Below, piece by piece: positions 3,127 to 10,525 of a stretch of DNA of 10,593 nt. The stretch lies in UHGV virus genome UHGV-0266384. One strand, given 5' to 3'. Made by a program: the position numbers and the translations under genes. The stretch comes from a virus. Position 1 is the stretch's first letter. The number at the start of each line of letters is the position of its first letter. The notes beneath the pieces were generated by a model. It was not told where the DNA came from and did no database searches. It saw only the letters and a program-made list of their open reading frames with translations.

Positions 3127-3324
3127 ATGGTTGCCGTAAATCATATACCACACCTTGTACACACACAAACGGCCTTTGTGTGGCGTTTTCTGGCACTGAG
3201 TGCCGGAGAATCTCAAATCATCCACGTAACCGCCTGGACGGAACGCGAAGCGCGTAGCCGTTGCCCGTCCGGTTGTGTTGCTGTATTCGCCGCCCGTATT
3301 CGTCAGGGGTCACATCATGCGTAA
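3127..3324 (+). CDS. Icd-like small protein (host cell-division inhibitor family), 65 aa
   Basis: Strong SD AGGAG 6 nt upstream of ATG 3127 (the track's longer 3025 start lacks an SD). Motifs FVWRFLALS ... TEREAR ... FAARIRQG resemble the P1 Icd / P4-like Icd-like family as I recall it. A paralogous C-terminus is repeated in the next gene. Confidence 0.5.
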   Translation: MVAVNHIPHLVHTQTAFVWRFLALSAGESQIIHVTAWTEREARSRCPSGCVAVFAARIRQGSHHA

Positions 3325-3781
3325 AAACCGCTTGCAAAAAATTATCACGGGGCTGTATGCTTCCCCCGTCGCCCACATGGCGACCGGGTTTGACAGCCTG
3401 AATACATCTGGCGGACAGCCGCCCACATCCGATAAGCGGTTTTTTTGTGTCCGTAAACCTACCCATACCCGCATTATGGCGGGGCGTAACGGGGGAGCCT
3501 TTGTGCTCGCTGGTTTCCAGATGACCAGTCTGTCAACCCTGTTACGTCTCGCCACCATGTTTGACAGCGTAGTAGCGAGACTCCTTAAAATTCATCTGGG
3601 AGCCTTTCACATGGCTGTATCCGCACGCCCTTATTTTGTCTGGCGCTTTATGCAGTGCCTGACAGACAGTATTGCAATATTCACCGTTACCGCTGCCACT
3701 GAGCGCGAAGCACGTGCACAGCTGCCGCACGCACATCTTATTTTTGTCGCCCGTATTCGCCAGGGGGGGAGTCATGCATAA
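3317..3781 (+). CDS. Ash-like / Icd-like protein (154 aa), or alternatively only the C-terminal 56-aa Icd-like paralog starting at ATG 3611
   Basis: ATG 3317 overlaps the previous stop (ATGCGTAA) with SD AGGGG upstream. The C-terminal 56 aa (YFVWRFMQCL ... TEREARAQ ... FVARIRQGG) are paralogous to the gene at 3127-3324 and have their own SD (GGGAG) and ATG at 3611. The N-terminal 98 codons overlap a repeat-rich, hairpin-rich region, so their coding status is uncertain. Confidence 0.45.
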   Translation: MRKNRLQKIITGLYASPVAHMATGFDSLNTSGGQPPTSDKRFFCVRKPTHTRIMAGRNGGAFVLAGFQMTSLSTLLRLATMFDSVVARLLKIHLGAFHMAVSARPYFVWRFMQCLTDSIAIFTVTAATEREARAQLPHAHLIFVARIRQGGSHA

Positions 3782-4001
3782 AATACCCTTTGATGTTCTT
3801 GTTCATTCTGAAAACGCATTAATCCGCGCAAAGGAAATGGACGCATTACTACTTAAGTTAATTGATGTGCCGGAAAGTGGCGATGAATCTGATTCAATGA
3901 TGTTTTCTGCCGTGCGTACGCTATTAACGCCTGTTATTAATGAATTAAATACAGTGATGGCAATTCACGAGAATAATAAAGCGCAGCACACCGGAGAATA
4001 A
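3774..4001 (+). CDS. Hypothetical small acidic protein (75 aa)
   Basis: ATG 3774 overlaps the previous stop (ATGCATAA) and follows a strong SD GGGGGGGAG. MHKIPFDVLVHSENALIRAKEMDALLLKLIDVPESGDESDSMMF... No family recognised. The track's longer 3672 start is unlikely. Confidence 0.55.
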   Translation: MHKIPFDVLVHSENALIRAKEMDALLLKLIDVPESGDESDSMMFSAVRTLLTPVINELNTVMAIHENNKAQHTGE

Positions 4002-4006
4002 AAAAC

Positions 4007-4306
4007 ATGAAAAATAAAAATTCTGGCGTTACTGCCAGCGGCCCCGCTCGTCCTGAATTTATGAACGGCGATATTTACCGCGATAAATATGGCGGCATGG
4101 TAACGATTAAAGGCGTGGCAGAACGGCGCATCACCTACCGTCGTGAAGGCTACGAATATGATTGCGTGATGCCTGTTTATCAGTTTCGGCGTGATTTTTC
4201 TCTGGTACAGGCAGCGCCCCGCAGTAAACCAACCAGCAGGGAGAAAGCACGCGCCAATATTCAGGAAATAAAAAAGATGCTTAACGTATTCAGGGGTAAA
4301 AAATGA
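4007..4306 (+). CDS. Hypothetical small protein (99 aa), translationally coupled to the primase; possibly DUF4222-like
   Basis: SD GGAGA upstream of ATG 4007; the stop overlaps the primase start (ATGA). The motif YRDKYGGMVTIKGV...RRITYRREGYEYDCVMPVYQFRRDF reminds me of a small prophage DUF family, but I cannot confirm it. Confidence 0.55.
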   Translation: MKNKNSGVTASGPARPEFMNGDIYRDKYGGMVTIKGVAERRITYRREGYEYDCVMPVYQFRRDFSLVQAAPRSKPTSREKARANIQEIKKMLNVFRGKK

Positions 4307-6051
4307 AACTGGCACCGAACGTAAAAAAACAGCCACGCGGAATAAAACACAAAGACACAGAGGTAATTATTTTCGCGGGTAGTGATGCCTGGTCGCACGC
4401 GAAACAATGGCAGGAGCAGGATGGCCCCGCATCCGGCGATAATGTGCCGCCTGTGTGGCTTGGGCCAAATCAGCTTGCCGAACTTGATGCACTGAAAATT
4501 GTTCCGGATGGGAAAAAGCGCGTAAGGCTGTACCAGGCCGGAGAACTGGATTTGGTGGAGACCAAAAAGATTGGTCAGAAGCTGGCGGCGGCAGATATTC
4601 AGGACGCAAATTTTTACCCCGAAGGAATGCACGTCCAGAAGTGTGAAAACTGGCGGCGCTATCTGAATGCTGAGCGTGAAAATATTGCCGCAGGGCTTAC
4701 CATGCCGGAGCAGAAAAATACGCAACTGGCACAAATGGCAGACAGTGAGCGCGCGCAGCTGCTTGCCGAGCGCTTTGATGGCGTTTGTGTGCATCCGGAA
4801 AGTGAAATCGTTCACGTATGGCGCGGCGGGGTATGGTGTCCGGTCAGCACAATGGAACTTAGCCGCGAAATGGTGGCGATCTATTCAGAGCACAGGGCCA
4901 CTTTCAGCAAGCGCGTAATCAATAACGCCGTGGAGGCGTTAAAAGTTATTGCCGAACCAATGGGCGAGCCGTCCGGCGATTTGCTGCCGTTCGCCAATGG
5001 TGCGCTTGACCTGAAAACGGGGGAATTTTCCCCGCACACGCCGGAGAACTGGATCACCACGCACAACGGCATTGAGTACACGCCACCAGCACCAGGGGAG
5101 AATATCTGCGACAACGCGCCAAACTTTCATAAATGGCTTGAGCACGCAGCCGGAAAAGACCCGCGCAAGATGATGCGTATATGTGCCGCGCTGTACATGA
5201 TTATGGCGAACCGGTACGACTGGCAGATGTTTATTGAGGCCACCGGAGACGGCGGGAGCGGCAAAAGTACATTCACCCACATCGCCAGCCTTTTAGCGGG
5301 GAAACAAAACACGGTAAGCGCGGAAATGACATCGCTTGATGATGCTGGTGGGCGTGCGCAGGTTGTCGGGAGTCGTCTTATCGTCCTGGCAGACCAGCCG
5401 AAATATACAGGCGAAGGCACGGGCATCAAGAAAATCACGGGCGGCGACCCCGTGGAAATCAACCCGAAATATGAAAAGCGTTTCACTACGGTAATCAGGG
5501 CGGTGGTGCTGGCGACCAATAACAACCCGATGATATTCACCGAACGGGCCGGAGGCGTGTCACGTCGTCGGGTTATTTTCCGCTTCGACAATATCGTAAG
5601 CGAGGCAGAAAAAGACAGGGAGCTACCGGAAAAGATCGCGGCTGAAATCCCTGTCATTATCCGCCGCTTGCTGGCGAACTTTACCGACCCTGAGAAGGCA
5701 CGGGCTTTACTACTGGAACAGCGTGACGGTGATGAAGCTCTGGCAATAAAGCAACAGACGGATCCGGTTATTGAGTTTTGCCAGTTCCTGAATTTTCTGG
5801 AGGAAGCACGCGGCCTGATGATGGGCGGCGGTGGCGATTCAGTGAAGTACACAACCAGAAACAGCCTTTACCGCGTCTATCTGGCGTTTATGGCATACGC
5901 AGGCAGGAGCAAACCGCTAAACGTGGCTGAGTTCAGCAAGGCCATGAAGCCAGCGGCAAAAGTTTACGGACATGAATATATTACGCGGAGAGTTAAGGGA
6001 GTAACGCAGACCAACGCAATTACAACTGATGATTGTGACGCGTTTTTATAA
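4303..6051 (+). CDS. Primase-helicase, P4 alpha / D5-like SF3 helicase (the PICI pri-rep equivalent)
   Basis: 582 aa. SF3 helicase motifs are present: Walker A GDGGSGKST (about nt 5245-5271), motif B RLIVLAD, motif C VVLATNNNP. It is immediately followed by an iteron array, as expected for a replication initiator. Confidence 0.85.
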   Translation: MKLAPNVKKQPRGIKHKDTEVIIFAGSDAWSHAKQWQEQDGPASGDNVPPVWLGPNQLAELDALKIVPDGKKRVRLYQAGELDLVETKKIGQKLAAADIQDANFYPEGMHVQKCENWRRYLNAERENIAAGLTMPEQKNTQLAQMADSERAQLLAERFDGVCVHPESEIVHVWRGGVWCPVSTMELSREMVAIYSEHRATFSKRVINNAVEALKVIAEPMGEPSGDLLPFANGALDLKTGEFSPHTPENWITTHNGIEYTPPAPGENICDNAPNFHKWLEHAAGKDPRKMMRICAALYMIMANRYDWQMFIEATGDGGSGKSTFTHIASLLAGKQNTVSAEMTSLDDAGGRAQVVGSRLIVLADQPKYTGEGTGIKKITGGDPVEINPKYEKRFTTVIRAVVLATNNNPMIFTERAGGVSRRRVIFRFDNIVSEAEKDRELPEKIAAEIPVIIRRLLANFTDPEKARALLLEQRDGDEALAIKQQTDPVIEFCQFLNFLEEARGLMMGGGGDSVKYTTRNSLYRVYLAFMAYAGRSKPLNVAEFSKAMKPAAKVYGHEYITRRVKGVTQTNAITTDDCDAFL

Positions 6052-6065
6052 TTTTTTGTAAAAGT

Positions 6066-6289
6066 CCTCTACCCCATCCACCTGAATGAAATAAACGCAT
6101 ATTATTCAACATGATAAGTGGGTAGAGGGCTAGGTAGAAGGCTAATAAAACCTCTCTACCTCTTCTACCATGATTAAGATCGTTTGTGAGGGGCGGGTAG
6201 AGGATGGGTAGAGGGCCACGAAAGCCCTCTACCCATCTGAAAGCCGCGCCATTACTGACATGAAAGATGATTAGGTAGAGAGGTAGAGG
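6066..6289. repeat. Iteron-type replication origin (candidate ori): at least 9 copies of GGTAGAGG / CCTCTACC
   Basis: GGTAGAGG or one-mismatch variants at 6121, 6133, 6196, 6207, 6274 and 6282; CCTCTACC or variants at 6066, 6151-6170 and 6226. Includes the perfect inverted pair GGGTAGAGGGC-7nt-GCCCTCTACCC (6206-6234). AT-rich spacers lie between the copies. Confidence 0.7.
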
Positions 6290-6337
6290 AGGTGCACCAC
6301 AACCTAAAACTTTTTAAACACGAGAGTAAAAATAAAA

Positions 6338-6616
6338 ATGCACACATCAGGAAGATTTAACAAATCACTCAAAAAACGCAAAGACAGAACAGCACCAAGA
6401 TATAAAGCGCTGGAGATGACAGAGCACGCCTTAAAGGTGGCTATAAAGGTGATAGACATCACAGCGGGAGAAGGATACTCGAAAGCACATCCCGAACTAA
6501 TAAGCGCATTCATGACCACGGCGGCGGCAAACTTTGCCACGCTGACAGAGCGGGAGATTGCAGAAGCGGAACAGGTAACAACCATCAACGTTAAAACCGG
6601 AGAGCAGACAGCATGA
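6338..6616 (+). CDS. Hypothetical protein (92 aa), translationally coupled to ssb
   Basis: The ORF's stop overlaps the ssb start (ATGA). No family recognised and the start codon is uncertain (weak SD). Confidence 0.45.
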   Translation: MHTSGRFNKSLKKRKDRTAPRYKALEMTEHALKVAIKVIDITAGEGYSKAHPELISAFMTTAAANFATLTEREIAEAEQVTTINVKTGEQTA

Positions 6617-7023
6617 CAGCACAGATAGCGGCTTACGGGCGGCTGGTGGACGACCCGCAGGTAAAACAGACCAGCAAGGGCACACCAATGACGCTGGCAC
6701 GTATGGCGGTATCGTTGCCATGTAGTCAGGCGCAGGATGGGCAGGCTACGTTATGGCTATCGGTGATGGCATTTGGTAAGCAGGCCGACTTCCTGGCTAA
6801 ACATCAAAAAGGCGACGTTGCCAGCGTATCCGGCACGATGCAGGTCAGCCAGTGGACCGGACAGAACGGGGAAACGCGGCAGGGTTATCAGGTTATTGCA
6901 GACAGCGTAATCAGTGCCCGTGCGGCACGTCCTGGCGGGAACAGACGCAAAACCACAGGCACACAGGGTAATCAGCCACCAGCGGGAGGCGATGACCCTT
7001 ACGGTGATGATATTCCGTTCTGA
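6613..7023 (+). CDS. ssb: Single-stranded DNA-binding protein (phage-type SSB)
   Basis: 136 aa with an OB-fold-like N-terminal region and a Gly/Pro-rich tail ending in the hallmark acidic C-terminus ...DDPYGDDIPF (E. coli SSB ends ...DFDDDIPF). Confidence 0.8.
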   Translation: MTAQIAAYGRLVDDPQVKQTSKGTPMTLARMAVSLPCSQAQDGQATLWLSVMAFGKQADFLAKHQKGDVASVSGTMQVSQWTGQNGETRQGYQVIADSVISARAARPGGNRRKTTGTQGNQPPAGGDDPYGDDIPF

Positions 7024-7033
7024 GGGGGTGAGG

Positions 7034-7306
7034 ATGGTACATGACCGCATAGCGGAGGAACTCGAGGCAAAAGGCTTTTACCGGAGGGCGGCGGCACGAT
7101 GGGGTGAAGTCATGCAGCTGGTGGAGACAGACAAGGAACGGCATCAGGTTACGATGCGACGGCTGGAATGTTCCAGGAAGGCACAGAGGCCACCGGAGCC
7201 GCCGGATAACTTCGGAGACCTGAGAAAGGCAGTCGATCGCACTTATGCTGAAATGGGTATAGATGGTGTAAGCGATGAAATATGGCGTAATTACCCAGGC
7301 AGCTAA
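7034..7306 (+). CDS. PerC/Pch-family-like transcriptional regulator (90 aa)
   Basis: ATG 7034 with SD GGGGGTGAGG (the track's 6914 start would overlap ssb). The N-terminal motif RIAEELEAKGFYRRAAARWGEVM resembles the PerC family signature as I recall it. Followed by two terminators. Confidence 0.45.
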   Translation: MVHDRIAEELEAKGFYRRAAARWGEVMQLVETDKERHQVTMRRLECSRKAQRPPEPPDNFGDLRKAVDRTYAEMGIDGVSDEIWRNYPGS

Positions 7307-7311
7307 TCAAC

Positions 7312-7334
7312 AGCCGGAGTAATCCGGCTTTTTT
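7312..7334 (+). terminator. Rho-independent terminator
   Basis: AGCCGGA-GTAA-TCCGGCT followed by TTTTT. Confidence 0.8.
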
Positions 7335-7340
7335 GTACCC

Positions 7341-7461: not shown

Positions 7462-7490
7462 ATTGCATAAAATGCAATCATGATTATAAT
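7462..7490 (+). promoter_or_regulatory. Late (capsid operon) promoter with operator palindrome
   Basis: -35 TTGCAT (7463-7468), 16-bp spacer, perfect -10 TATAAT (7485-7490). The 17-bp perfect palindrome ATTGCAT-AAA-ATGCAAT (7462-7478) overlaps the -35. Confidence 0.55.
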
Positions 7491-7546
7491 CAGATCTGGA
7501 TGAACATCCAGTTATGATTTTTTAAGTCAAAGAGGAATTTCTTACT

Positions 7547-7753
7547 ATGGCTGAAGAGAAAAAAGGCGGTGTTTCGGTGTACATAAGCCCCGACATCGTG
7601 AAGGCGCTCAAGGAACGCCACCAGCAGAACGTAAAAGCAGGCATTGCGGCAGGACTTGATCCGCTGGCGATGGTTGAGCCGTCAACAGGCTGGCAGGTAC
7701 GCGCCTATTTACGCGCGGCGCTGGGTATGAATCAGGTTCACGGGGGTGAATAA
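7547..7753 (+). CDS. Hypothetical small protein (68 aa), first gene of the capsid operon
   Basis: SD AGAGGA 9 nt upstream of the ATG; the stop overlaps the major capsid start by 1 nt (TAATG). No family recognised; position suggests a scaffold or assembly role. Confidence 0.55.
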   Translation: MAEEKKGGVSVYISPDIVKALKERHQQNVKAGIAAGLDPLAMVEPSTGWQVRAYLRAALGMNQVHGGE

Positions 7754-8808
7754 TGACAGTAAAAGCAATATCACTTAACACTAACCAGCTTTTTGCGTAC
7801 CTGAATCGCGAGGATATTGCGGAATTTAAATTCAGTCCGCTGTTTACCGCGCTGTTTTTCCCGAACGTGGCGACATTCAACACACAGGACATCATGTTAG
7901 ATAACCTGGATATTGAAGAAGTCACTATGTCGGCGTTTTGTTCGCCTATGGTGGGTAGCCAGGTTCAGCGCGATAAAGGGTACGAAACAAGCATTATTCG
8001 CCCTGGCTACATGAAGCCAAAACACGAAATCGATCCATTAAAAACAATAATGCGCATGGCTGGAGAAGATCCAGCACAGCTTAACGACCCTACCTACCGC
8101 CGTATGCGCCTGATTACTGGCAACATGCGCCGCCAGATAAACGCCATTAAAGCGCGCGTGGAATGGCTGGCGGTAAATGCGGTAACGACCGGAAAAAACA
8201 TCATTGAGGGCGAAGGCATAGAGCGCTATGAAATCGACTGGAAGATACCGGAAAAAAACATCATAGAGCAGGCCGACGGTAAAAAATGGTCAGAGCAGGA
8301 CAAAGACATACACGACCCAATCTATGACATTGAGCTATACGCAGATCAGGCAGGTTGCCCCGCAAACGTCATGATTATGGGCGTTGATGTATGGCGCATG
8401 TTACGCAGCTTTAAAAAATTCCGTGAACTGTACGATCTCTCCCGTGGTTCAGAATCCGCCGCAGAGCTGGCATGTAAAAACCTGGGAGAAGTGGTGAGCT
8501 TTAAAGGCTATCTTGGTGATCTGGCCCTTATCGTCTATTCCGGCAAATACACTGACAGCGACGGCACAGAAAAATATTTCCTTGAGCCTGATTTGCTGGT
8601 CCTGGGCAACACCAACAATAAAGGGCTGGTGGCCTATGGTGCGATTATGGAACAGGAAGCGGTAAGAACGGGCGCAACGCAAAACATGTTTTACCCGAAA
8701 AACTGGATTGAAGACGGCGATCCGGCGATTGAGTACGTGCAGACACACAGCGCACCGCAGCCTGTTCCGGCAGATATTCGCAAATTTGTTACCGTCAAAA
8801 TTGGTTAA
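7753..8808 (+). CDS. Major capsid protein, lambda gpE family
   Basis: 351 aa with multiple blocks matching lambda gpE from memory: EFKFSPLF (KFKFDPLF), RPGYMKPKHEIDP (TPGYVKPKHEVNP), DPTYRRMRLITGNMR (DPAYRRRRIIMQNMR), LGDLALIVYSGKY (YGDVAIVVYSGQY), YPKNWIEDGDPAIEY (YPKNWVTTGDPAREF), C-terminal KFVTVKIG (EFVSVQLA). Confidence 0.88.
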   Translation: MTVKAISLNTNQLFAYLNREDIAEFKFSPLFTALFFPNVATFNTQDIMLDNLDIEEVTMSAFCSPMVGSQVQRDKGYETSIIRPGYMKPKHEIDPLKTIMRMAGEDPAQLNDPTYRRMRLITGNMRRQINAIKARVEWLAVNAVTTGKNIIEGEGIERYEIDWKIPEKNIIEQADGKKWSEQDKDIHDPIYDIELYADQAGCPANVMIMGVDVWRMLRSFKKFRELYDLSRGSESAAELACKNLGEVVSFKGYLGDLALIVYSGKYTDSDGTEKYFLEPDLLVLGNTNNKGLVAYGAIMEQEAVRTGATQNMFYPKNWIEDGDPAIEYVQTHSAPQPVPADIRKFVTVKIG

Positions 8809-8819
8809 CGGTGGATTCT

Positions 8820-9155
8820 ATGAACACTCCATACATTGAGTTATTTGCAGGCAGTCAGCAGGTATCAACGACGCTGGTACATTTTGCCGCTGATGCTGGC
8901 GTTATTCAGGAATTTACCCCGCTGATGCTGGCGGACAATGGCGAGTTTAAGCCGTGGGATGGTCAGGAATCTGGCAAGGCTGTTTATCTGACCTCGTACC
9001 CCGTTGACACGTCGACGCAGAAATCAGCACAGTGCTATAAGACGGGGATATTCAATATCGCCGCCGTTAACTGGCCTGAGAGCGTCGACACCGATGCGAA
9101 AAAATGCGCCGCCTTTGCGGGTTCTGGCGTATCCGTTCAGCCGCTGGCCCGATAA
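8820..9155 (+). CDS. Head decoration protein, lambda gpD family
   Basis: 111 aa from ATG 8820 (the track's GTG 8811 is in the same frame). TPLMLADNGEFKPWDG matches lambda gpD TPLMLDTSSRKLVAWDG; YKTGIF...WPE...DAKKCAAFAGSGVSV matches gpD YKSGTF...WPE...ETKKRTAFAGTAISIV. Confidence 0.75.
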   Translation: MNTPYIELFAGSQQVSTTLVHFAADAGVIQEFTPLMLADNGEFKPWDGQESGKAVYLTSYPVDTSTQKSAQCYKTGIFNIAAVNWPESVDTDAKKCAAFAGSGVSVQPLAR

Positions 9156-9167
9156 GCAGGGGGAACG

Positions 9168-9581
9168 ATGGCAACGAATGAAAGCATCATGGCGCTACCG
9201 CTGGCGAGTAAATTTAAAGCCGAAGCGCGGGCAATGGCTGACAGAGGGTTATCAACCTACGAGGCCGTATATCAACTCAACAAACTGGAAGAACAGGACA
9301 AGCCGCGCGCTGATGCGATTATGGCGCTTCATGAACATAACGACTATCAGCCGCTGTTACGTGCAATGGCAAACGTGCCATGTATTAGCGTCGATAATGC
9401 TCGTGAAATCCTGAACATGACCATAGAGCAGGAGCGCCCAAAGGTTGCACCAGAGCTTACCGCAGCCTTTGAAAACTTTATGGACATGCACAGCCCGCAA
9501 GCCGTATCAGCTGGCATGGCATACGATGGCAGAAACCAGGGCGATGACGGCGACATCGATCACATACTGAAAACCATCTGA
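9168..9581 (+). CDS. Hypothetical protein (137 aa), last gene before cos; possibly packaging- or head-related
   Basis: Strong SD GGGGGA upstream of the ATG; followed by a strong terminator. No family recognised and no clear match to lambda FI or FII. Confidence 0.6.
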   Translation: MATNESIMALPLASKFKAEARAMADRGLSTYEAVYQLNKLEEQDKPRADAIMALHEHNDYQPLLRAMANVPCISVDNAREILNMTIEQERPKVAPELTAAFENFMDMHSPQAVSAGMAYDGRNQGDDGDIDHILKTI

Positions 9582-9587
9582 GACAAG

Positions 9588-9611
9588 GCCGGAGAAATCC
9601 GGCTTTTTTTT
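9588..9611 (+). terminator. Rho-independent terminator of the capsid operon
   Basis: GCCGGA-GAAA-TCCGGC followed by eight T residues. Confidence 0.85.
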
Positions 9612-9830
9612 ACGGGTCCTTTCCGGCATATGGACCCGTTACGGGGCGGCGACCTCGCGCGTTTTCACTATTTATGAAAATTTTCCGGGATCCATGTCCG
9701 GTTTCTCTGCAAGTTAACCATATGAAAAATATAAAAACATGCTTTCTATGAACCGGACATGCGCAAAAAACAGACACTAAAACCGGACATCGTACCCGTT
9801 AACCGGAAGTGTGCAAAAATCACACGCATT
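9609..9830 (+). other. Lambda-type cos site, copy 1: cosQ-like, cosN, and cosB with R-like repeats
   Basis: TTACGGGTCCTTTCCGG ... GTTACGGGGCGGCGACCTCGCG ... GTTTTC(A)CTATTTATGAAAATTTTCCGG is near-identical to the lambda cos junction as I remember it. The 12-nt cohesive end GGGCGGCGACCT is at 9644-9655. Downstream there are three or four AACCGGACAT(G/C)-type repeats in both orientations (9691-9826), consistent with terminase small-subunit binding sites. Confidence 0.8.
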
Positions 9831-10099
9831 GCTGCGCGTGATTAACAATTTATCGGCTTTACTGTTCTGTATAGGCTGGGTGGCGTCATGCCGTAGCCGT
9901 TCTCCGTGCCAGCATGGAATAATCCGTAGTTACAGAGCGGTAAAGTTAAAAATCACTTTCTGTTACGCCATCAAATACGCGATACAACAACCATGTGTTT
10001 TTACAAAACCATTTGATATCATTGAATTTTTTCACATTAATGACATCAAAATACATCGTAAGGTTGTTGTATTTATTTTATTTTTACCTTACTTATCAA

Positions 10100-10213
10100 T
10101 TAGATATACCAAACAATTAAACAACAACCACCCCCTCAAAAAATCTCATAAATAGCGAAAAACCGCGAGGTCGCCGCCCCGTAACGGGCCATAATTCCAG
10201 GAAGGACCCGACG
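10100..10213 (-). other. Second lambda-type cos site (copy 2) in inverted orientation, with a divergent cosB-side flank
   Basis: The reverse complement reads CGGGTCCTTCCTGG ... CCCGTTACGGGGCGGCGACCTCGCGG TTTTTCGCTATTTATGAGATTTT. cosN is identical to copy 1 over 25 bp (10164-10188 against 9635-9659), with the GGGCGGCGACCT complement at 10168-10179. The flank beyond TATTTATGA differs (GAGGGGGTGGTTGTTGTTTAATTG...). Confidence 0.75.
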
Positions 10214-10243: not shown

Positions 10244-10525
10244 ATGACAGAAGCCGAACTACTGGGATTAATCCGCCGCGTTACCGGAATCAGCCAGCAG
10301 CATGACGAACAGGCCACACAGCCGGACAGCGTGACCGCTGAAAATTATGTGCGTGTTGTTGCTGAGGTGATGCGCCGTGATGGTATAGAACTTAATGGCG
10401 TGGATATGCGCAACATACGAACCAGAGTTCTTGAGTTGCTGGCCTACCGTCGCCGCGTGGAGATGTATCGGGAGAAGGAGAAAATAACGTACCACTGGAA
10501 GAAGCCGGAACGACTGCGTACGTAA
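10244..10525 (+). CDS. Hypothetical protein (93 aa) immediately distal to the cos region
   Basis: SD GGGGG upstream of ATG 10244; the stop is embedded in a 17-bp perfect palindrome CGTACGTA-A-TACGTACG (10517-10533). No family recognised. Its position next to cos suggests a packaging-related role, but this is not supported by sequence. Confidence 0.5.
   Translation: MTEAELLGLIRRVTGISQQHDEQATQPDSVTAENYVRVVAEVMRRDGIELNGVDMRNIRTRVLELLAYRRRVEMYREKEKITYHWKKPERLRT

Follow-up and report, generated by a model that had tools for sequence, protein, structure and literature searches.

Relationship to described satellites

EcCICFT073 (NC_004431, positions 1377930–1388654) is a Gram-negative phage-inducible chromosomal island (PICI), whose induction by a helper, packaging and high-frequency transfer have been shown by experiment, and which carries a capsid gene (c1499) and a head decoration gene (c1500) (Fillol-Salom et al. 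2018, PMC6092414). In the same study each of the two genes was deleted, by analogy with Ccm of SaPIbov5, a Staphylococcus aureus pathogenicity island (SaPI) (PMC6092414). The product of c1503, RppA (144 amino acids, aa), pairs with the small terminase of the helper and is the source of interference and packaging specificity (Fillol-Salom et al. 2019, PMC6739421), and a capsid gene is present in 21 of 29 reference Gram-negative PICIs (Mageeney et al. 2023, PMC10111431). The DNA analysed here, a 10,593-nucleotide stretch of the virus genome UHGV-0266384 (hereafter "the window"), contains almost all of a ~11-kb PICI of the EcCICFT073 family, located at a tRNA-Pro gene, and its positions 7547–9581 are the conserved late module of that family. 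A first-pass annotation, made from the letters of the window alone, had proposed a satellite-like island that encodes its own capsid and decoration proteins, and suggested that this would be a distinct capsid-hijacking strategy. The observation is correct, and the island is a Gram-negative PICI of the EcCICFT073 type; however, the family has already been described, c1499 and c1500 are the same genes, and the hypothesis of their capsid function has been partly tested in the literature, with a negative outcome.

The island in the window and EcCICFT073 share int, alpA, the genes for a DUF4222 protein, a P4-type primase, a single-stranded DNA-binding protein (SSB) and a PerC-family protein, then the genes of the 68-aa, capsid, decoration and 137-aa proteins, a cos cassette and a 93-aa gene, as well as two inverted lambda-type cosN sites. 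In EcCICFT073 the same late operon is followed by a cos cassette with the 144-aa gene and by the 93-aa gene. The differences concern the integrases (24% identical), the integration site (next to roxA and phoQ in CFT073, tRNA-Pro near yejM for the window), the loss of rppA from the window except for 22 codons, and the position of cosB, which lies at the left cosN in the window and at the right cosN, facing inward, in CFT073.

Comparison with other satellites and phages reveals partial similarities. Like SaPIbov5 with Ccm, a homolog of the helper capsid protein, and SaPI1 with CpmB, a mimic of the C-terminus of the helper scaffold, the window possesses one candidate of each kind; however, there is no sequence relationship to Ccm or CpmB, the window additionally has a decoration gene, which the SaPIs lack, and small capsids have been demonstrated for SaPIs but not seen for EcCICFT073 with lambda. 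The capsid-forming PICIs (cf-PICIs, e.g. EcCIEDL933) have in common with the window the backbone of int, alpA and replication genes combined with a capsid protein encoded by the satellite. They encode, however, small and large terminase subunits (TerS and TerL), HNH, portal, protease and connector proteins, whereas the window has only the gpE-lineage capsid, decoration and scaffold-like proteins; membership in the cf-PICIs was rejected for the lack of portal, protease and TerL. Features in common with P4 are the primase, which is P4-type, and an antisense RNA similar to C4/CI, but a P4-like satellite was also rejected, as the 19-nt cos of P2/P4 was not found even with 3 mismatches and the late proteins are of the gpE/gpD/Nu3 type rather than Sid or Psu. 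The Nu3/C-D-E block of lambda and lambdoid phages is similar at the level of the capsid (43–48% identity), the decoration protein (37–45%) and the C-terminal segment of Nu3 (32–37%), and in the lambda-type cosQ-cosN-cosB; the window differs in the order (E, D, Nu3-like) and lacks the protease domain, the portal, Nu1/A, W, FI and FII. PICIs embedded in helpers (the 11capE type of Mageeney et al. 2023) belong to the same PICI family and carry a gpE-family capsid gene, but they are inserted within the late genes of the helper, in contrast to the chromosomal tRNA gene used by the island in the window.

A late module of capsid, decoration and candidate scaffold genes

The late module is a single operon bounded by terminators and composed of the following genes:

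7547–7753, + strand: 68-aa protein, first gene of the operon (PHROG 3255)
7753–8808, + strand: gpE-family (lambda) major capsid protein with the HK97 fold, of a satellite-specific lineage (PF03864, BLASTP, PDB match)
8820–9155, + strand (open reading frame, ORF, 8811/8820–9155): head decoration protein of the lambda gpD family (PF02924, BLASTP)
9168–9581, + strand: 137-aa all-helical protein, candidate mini-scaffold (homology to the C-terminal, Nu3, end of gpC)

The module may accordingly be described, on the grounds of homology, as a capsid gene, a decoration gene and a putative mini-scaffold gene, preceded by the gene of the 68-aa protein. The ORF list confirmed the four-gene operon that had been read from the DNA, and database searches have shown that its two uncharacterized members are conserved genes (PHROG 3255 and PHROG 1999 for the 68-aa and 137-aa proteins, respectively). 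NCBIfam returned zero matches for the late-operon proteins.

The capsid assignment is strongly supported. The product of 7753–8808 matches PF03864 (Phage_cap_E) with an E-value of 3.9e-49 and 167.9 bits (cut-off 22.9) over profile positions 14–328 of 329, and BLASTP aligns it to lambda gpE with 43% identity over 328 aa (E 6e-92) and to the capsid protein of the CFT073 helper with 45% identity. Among known structures it matches 3BQW, a crystal structure deposited as "putative capsid protein of prophage" (E 6.7e-229), as well as lambda gpE (7VI9, E 3.9e-81). The protein is 94.9% identical to c1499 of EcCICFT073, and the sequence of 3BQW equals that of the CFT073 capsid protein wherever the two were compared. 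Among 50,697 phage records the best capsid match, found in the lambdoid PhiR12 phages, is only 47.6% identical. Because no phage capsid protein exceeds this value, the island protein represents an old satellite lineage rather than a recent capture. It is full length, without any obvious truncation, and 43–48% identical to the capsids of lambda-sized phages (triangulation number T=7). A patch of 12 residues, EQADGKKWSEQD, is common to the island capsid (residues ~170–184, window ~8260–8300) and the capsid of PhiR12_1 (L088:15352-16380), while the capsids of lambda and of the CFT073 helper have other residues there; this suggests gene conversion between satellite and helper capsid genes.

The decoration protein was also identified with confidence (PF02924, HDPD: E 3.7e-18, 66.2 bits, cut-off 29.1; PHROG 49 'head decoration': E 5.9e-28). 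It shows 37% identity to lambda gpD (BLASTP E 7e-14) and 96.4% to c1500 of EcCICFT073. Thus, both family assignments of the first-pass annotation, gpE for 7753–8808 and gpD for 8820–9155, were upheld by database searches, as was its remark on the reversed gene order: in lambda D (5747–6079) precedes E (6135–7160), while in the island E precedes D.

Residues 45–119 of the 137-aa protein match positions 494–567 of 583 in PHROG 53, 'head maturation protease' (E 7e-10), and BLASTP aligns residues 49–131 with residues 416–493 of 501 of the S49 peptidase of the CFT073 helper (37% identity, E 2e-10). The C-terminal part of lambda gpC is also made separately as Nu3, the head scaffold. The sole phage match in tblastn is the end of the protease gene of the lambdoid phage 204576, directly upstream of D, and the protein likewise matches the end of C, just before D, at four prophage loci of lambdoid type, representing three species (E. 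albertii; E. coli and Shigella flexneri, which carry one and the same prophage; Trabulsiella guamensis). Together these alignments indicate that residues 49–131 are homologous to the Nu3 scaffold portion at the C-terminus of lambdoid gpC, which makes the protein a candidate mini-scaffold with a predicted scaffolding role. Its N-terminal 47 residues are unique, and the Nu3-like part is free-standing, i.e. it is not accompanied by a protease domain. The AlphaFold2 model consists entirely of helices, with a mean predicted local distance difference test score (pLDDT) of 66 and a confident N-terminal half; such a model is compatible with a scaffold, albeit not diagnostic of one.

The gene is conserved (PHROG 1999; protein cluster of 586 members), and its product is 92% identical to the counterpart in EcCICFT073. 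Some database sources name the protein "head-tail preconnector", a label that echoes the same similarity. The search of PDB sequences with the 137-aa protein gave no match, Foldseek found no significant fold match of its model in PDB or BFVD, and word-indexed protein searches together with a full HMMER search using the 137-aa profile returned almost only close enterobacterial satellite copies; weak long HMMER matches of this profile were dismissed as low-complexity proteins. A literature search combining PICI and Nu3 gave nothing relevant, nor was any paper found that discusses the 137-aa protein, and the assignment of a Nu3-like scaffold is a small new detail with respect to the literature.

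For the 68-aa protein, only a match to PHROG 3255 was obtained (function unknown, E 8e-37; protein cluster of 88 members), with no match in Pfam, NCBIfam or phages; the protein is 98.5% identical to its EcCICFT073 counterpart. Its AlphaFold2 model (mean pLDDT 74.6) shows a beta-hairpin followed by two helices and has no significant fold match in PDB or BFVD (Foldseek). A ribbon-helix-helix-like assignment was dropped, as no fold match backs it.

Distribution and selection

The module was found in 598 of 5426 complete E. coli genomes, i.e. about one in nine, in up to 5 copies per genome, which are nearly always full length and 90–95% identical. A further 80 IMG/VR loci were chosen by a capsid protein of 91% identity or more. 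Every one of them has the genes of the 68-aa, capsid and decoration proteins, and 74 have the 137-aa gene, several of the remaining loci being cut by contig ends. Elsewhere the same loci are mosaic, with primases 36–99% and integrases 21–96% identical. The pairwise dN/dS values relative to the alleles in the window amount to 0.14 for the capsid, 0.08 for the decoration protein and 0.29 for both the 137-aa and the 68-aa protein, which shows that the module is under purifying selection. Pure decay of the module is contradicted by these data.

A more distant relative was identified in Kosakonia sp. S29 (L131, FONB01000025.1, 700–10200), where a helper-embedded PICI lies between lambda-like D and FI/FII genes. 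Apart from an integrase gene, it has genes for a capsid and a decoration protein with 55% and 50% identity, respectively, to those of the window, an AlpA-like helix-turn-helix ORF of 144 aa, and a gene for a TerS with 56% identity to the type found in the Nissle island; no homolog of the 68-aa or 137-aa genes was detected in it. As in the window, the decoration gene follows the capsid gene; conservation of the E–D order therefore extends well outside E. coli.

The first scan of genome contigs with the capsid protein gave no matches, while the second, which used a mixed alignment, recovered mainly complete lambdoid prophages and contaminating lambda DNA, plus one helper-embedded PICI. Head genes 100% identical to those of lambda were observed in unrelated assemblies (Neobacillus, Kitasatospora, Pseudomonas, Shewanella, Leeuwenhoekiella and others; L097–L111 and more), and these are almost certainly lambda DNA contamination.

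Possible functions of the module

The interpretation that we tentatively prefer, although we rate it at somewhat less than an even chance, is that the module is a matched shell set, whose gpE-like capsid protein, fitting gpD-like decoration protein and Nu3-type mini-scaffold would assemble into lambda-like heads. Following the induction of a lambdoid helper, the island shell proteins would assemble on the helper portal, either alone or mixed with helper gpE, and the mini-scaffold would act through the capsid-binding C-terminal part of Nu3 that it seems to have kept. The shells would then be matured by the helper gpC protease and filled by the helper terminase, and the product would be lambda-like heads with several island genomes per head. 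The module would in such a case supplement or partly replace the shell proteins of the helper, being neither essential for transfer nor a proven device for the redirection of capsid size. Shell assembly makes the most sense because the decoration protein and the scaffold fragment appear to have co-diverged with the capsid protein. In favour of a matched set are also the gpE and gpD homologies, which extend along the whole of both proteins, the solved structure of the CFT073 ortholog (3BQW) and the Nu3-type homology of the 137-aa protein. Lambda-sized heads are favoured, since they fit the finding that all DNA packaged from the combination of lambda and EcCICFT073 is phage-sized (PMC6092414; PMC6893505), and since the genes would be dispensable whenever the helper supplies the shell.

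Several results weigh against a shell set of this kind. Single deletion of c1499 or c1500 left resident-prophage transfer and lambda interference unchanged (PMC6092414), and when the genes downstream of ori were expressed singly, only c1503 (rppA) blocked lambda (PMC6739421). Compared directly with lambda Nu3, the 137-aa protein shows only weak similarity (hhalign, E 0.0076), even if the alignment covers the equivalent motif IM..EA.GRE...LA..PGMTV..AR.IL, and the C-terminal half of the 137-aa model is of low confidence.

Or perhaps the module could redirect capsid size when the island meets its cognate lambdoid helper, so that smaller shells would fit one or two ~11-kb genomes and exclude that of the helper? 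We regard this as unlikely, although a capsid homolog and a truncated scaffold homolog are precisely the two kinds of proteins used by SaPIs (cf-PICI preprint; PMC6893505), and PmCI172, a Gram-negative PICI with a capsid homolog, does make small capsids (PMC6092414). The smaller capsid envisaged in the first-pass annotation did not hold as regards the lambda helper, with which only phage-sized DNA was packaged (PMC6092414); yet this negative size result came from lambda only, and transfer that is independent of the capsid gene does not argue against redirection, as a transfer assay would not reveal size. Further points against it are that the deletions of c1499 and c1500 did not relieve interference and that the island capsid, untruncated as it seems, resembles the T=7 capsids over its full length (43–48% identity).

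A bolder version, to which we give still less credence, is that with a PhiR12-like helper the four-gene module would be a self-sufficient shell kit, building satellite-specific shells, possibly of lower T, for one or two ~11-kb genomes with the aid of a portal, a protease and a terminase stolen from the helper. The negative experiments with lambda would then reflect a non-cognate helper. That the 137-aa protein is Nu3-like adds somewhat to the case for a shell of the island's own, perhaps a smaller one, in combination with a cognate helper. If true, the island would stand between the classical PICIs, which take everything from the helper, and the cf-PICIs, which take no more than the tails.

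It is more improbable again that the module serves interference or defence, the island shell proteins co-assembling with or titrating the shell and scaffold proteins of lambdoid phages and thereby poisoning head assembly; a benefit of such poisoning, be it protection of the host population or an advantage to the island, seems equally improbable. In the 137-aa protein the C-terminal end of the helper scaffold is retained, with which it could compete for the helper capsid protein, and the shared patch EQADGKKWSEQD suggests that the capsid genes of the island and of PhiR12 have met and recombined. However, the single deletions did not restore lambda plaques, singly expressed genes other than rppA inhibited neither lambda nor phage 80, and a matched decoration gene is not needed for poisoning.

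Least probable of all is a back-up copy, by which relatives inserted in helper E need a spare capsid gene and the module has little function in chromosomal islands: 201 helper-embedded PICIs do lie in the E gene, with a back-up role proposed for them (Mageeney et al., PMC10111431), and the Kosakonia element between lambda-like D and FI has the same E then D order, but the island in the window lies at tRNA-Pro and not within a prophage, a function in chromosomal islands too is suggested by the purifying selection and by the retention of the module in nearly all of them, and excision restores the helper E gene anyway.

In the eight years since the first description, the published tests have been limited to deletions of one gene at a time, read out as interference with lambda and as transfer by the resident prophages. 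With the 137-aa protein as a putative fragment of the Nu3 type, what looked like a stray capsid homolog becomes a matched set of capsid, decoration and scaffold proteins under purifying selection. Should the island proteins turn out to be part of the particles, the family would link the classical PICIs to the capsid-forming ones; otherwise these structural genes, very common and conserved as they are, would have a non-structural role.

The cos region and packaging specificity

The late operon is directly followed by cos, as had been claimed for the window; cosN begins 38 bases past the terminator hairpin (9585–9606). The features of this region are:

9613–9684, + strand: left inverted-repeat arm, cosQ-like sequence and cosN
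9644–9655, + strand: left cosN, lambda cohesive-end sequence GGGCGGCGACCT
9656–9835, + strand: helper-type cosB with three CCGGACAT(G/C) elements
9693–9701 (− strand), 9753–9761 (+ strand), 9783–9791 (+ strand): the CCGGACAT(G/C) elements
9875–9940, + strand: rppA remnant, last 22 codons, 73% identical to EcCICFT073 RppA (tblastn E 1.5e-5, DNA alignment)
10139–10210, − strand: right inverted-repeat arm, with the second, inverted cosN at 10168–10179

The three CCGGACAT(G/C) elements (0.13 expected by chance) are arranged like the R sites of lambda. Positions 9613–9790 show 95% identity to the cos region that immediately precedes Nu1 in the lambdoid phages PhiR12_1, 2, 2_star, 4 and 5. The prophage that serves as helper in CFT073 has the same cosQ-side and cosN sequence. 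The helper-type cosB adjoins the right cosN in CFT073 and the left one in the window, but its placement with respect to the adjoining cosN is the same in both. The inverted cosQ-cosN copies flank a cassette that varies between islands and contains a Nu1-like TerS, RppA, or the helper cosB alone. A 180-aa Nu1-like TerS is encoded in the cassette of 40 of the 80 loci, as well as in the Nissle island at the same tRNA-Pro site; the TerS-like protein of Nissle gave no sequence match to the structures of RppC or Nu1. Intact rppA, as in CFT073, was found in 17 or 18 of the 80 loci, and the window-type cassette of 666–670 bp, without terS or rppA, in 8 loci. One further locus (L040) is an apparent intermediate with a 51-aa RppA fragment.

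The island in the window has no terS and no intact rpp, only the 22-codon remnant of rppA, from which we infer that it exchanged Rpp-mediated redirection for direct mimicry of the helper cos. Packaging specificity would here come neither from RppA nor from an island TerS but from a cosQ-cosN-cosB copied from a PhiR12-like phage, and the Nu1 of that helper should recognise it. The contrast drawn in the first-pass annotation with redirection of the helper small terminase is not supported, as the EcCICFT073 family normally does just that via RppA; this particular island has lost rppA. The PhiR12 phages are plausible natural helpers because they combine the match in cos, the closest phage capsid protein and the shared 12-residue patch. 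With respect to the literature, the cos cassette without rppA is another small new detail.

The inversion of the cassette is a separate lead. Among near-identical islands the segment between the inverted cosQ-cosN copies (9656–10167 in the window) occurs in both orientations: L008, L009, L010, L018 and L041 have that of the window, while L007 (4148–4775), L012 and L014 have it flipped, and the breakpoints lie within the cosN repeat. The inversion could result from homologous recombination or from terminase cutting at both inverted cosN sites, the latter because identical overhangs remain at both ends of the excised piece. Flipping shifts the single cosB to the other cosN and would reverse the direction of packaging. 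Conceivably, the inverted cosQ-cosN repeats allow the packaging-specificity cassette to be exchanged (TerS, RppA or helper cosB) and also to be inverted.

Operon boundaries and the putative promoter

The limits of the late operon and its putative promoter are as follows:

7312–7329, + strand: intrinsic-terminator-like hairpin, end of the upstream SSB/PerC transcription unit
7463–7490, + strand: putative operon promoter (TTGCAT, 16 nt, TATAAT; read from the sequence)
9585–9606, + strand: intrinsic terminator of the capsid operon

The promoter, placed at 7462–7490 in the first-pass annotation, received mixed support. It is kept across 54 different upstream alleles, but only 3 of 6 bases of its −35 hexamer agree with the consensus and a consensus promoter scan made no call at 7463–7490, so that it remains a plausible promoter, which would probably depend on an activator. 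A palindrome without mismatches, TTGCATAAAATGCAA, overlaps the promoter, and a related sequence, ATTTGCAA, lies upstream; directly 3' of the promoter a conserved hairpin, CTGGATGAACATCCAG (7496–7511), is followed by a T-rich tract and the Shine-Dalgarno sequence AAGAGGAA. Because the palindrome, the hairpin and the T-rich tract are kept across the 54 alleles, the 7463–7511 region looks like an operator combined with an early pause or attenuation site for a regulator. Nothing similar was found when phages were searched with the promoter region, and a borrowed Q-dependent late promoter gained no support, as the region has no phage relatives. The two flanking terminators, taken with their T tails (7313–7338 and 9588–9613), are 26-nt repeats with 92% identity, which could mark the boundaries of the module or serve as recombination sites.

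Other features of the island

The element is unidirectional, with all named genes on the + strand (ORF list of the 10,593-base window). Apart from the late module and cos, the window comprises:

196–272: tRNA-Pro
473–1732, + strand: tyrosine integrase, directly 3' of tRNA-Pro (PF00589, E 1e-28)
2229–2435, + strand: AlpA-type regulator, weak (Phage_AlpA, E 0.0035, 17.6 bits, under the 21-bit cut-off)
4007–6051, + strand: DUF4222 gene and P4/D5-type primase
4303–6051, + strand: the primase (Pfam D5_N, DUF5906, Pox_D5), 90% identical to that of EcCICFT073
6613–7023, + strand: SSB (Pfam)
end at 7306, + strand: PerC-family gene (Pfam)
10244–10525, + strand: 93-aa ORF

The product of 2229–2435, encoded downstream of int in the same direction, is labelled in RefSeq as a helix-turn-helix regulator. 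E. coli S1-CAM-02-A carries the same element (97.2% identity) between yejM/tRNA-Pro and the yejO pseudogene/narP, with no further island annotation beyond the 93-aa ORF and with host genes on both sides, which agrees with the earlier recognition of a satellite-like island. No portal, protease or large terminase was identified in the window (ORF list, Pfam, PHROG) or adjoining it in this relative, where the region to the right of the window holds the yejO pseudogene and narP instead of a packaging and portal module, in line with the absence noted in the first-pass annotation. Tail and lysis genes were likewise not detected (ORF list, Pfam and PHROG scans of the window; flanks occupied by host genes). 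At ~0.7 kb beyond the end of the window, before yejO, the 3' end of the tRNA recurs as a degenerate copy, which is the likely right boundary; because it marks this boundary, the island can be taken as ~11 kb long and nearly all inside the window (about 11.4 kb from the tRNA to the degenerate repeat in the 97%-identical relative).

Two further observations concern the early region. A C4 antisense RNA (Rfam, 72.6 bits) and its a1/b1 target (46.8 bits) were found on the + strand at 3355–3404 and 3472–3559, just upstream of icd-like ORFs, which points to RNA-based immunity control in the style of P1 and P4. A 48-nt direct repeat (75% identical; 3286–3333 and 3743–3790) spans the starts of two successive ORFs of the icd-like/ash region and indicates a duplicated unit.

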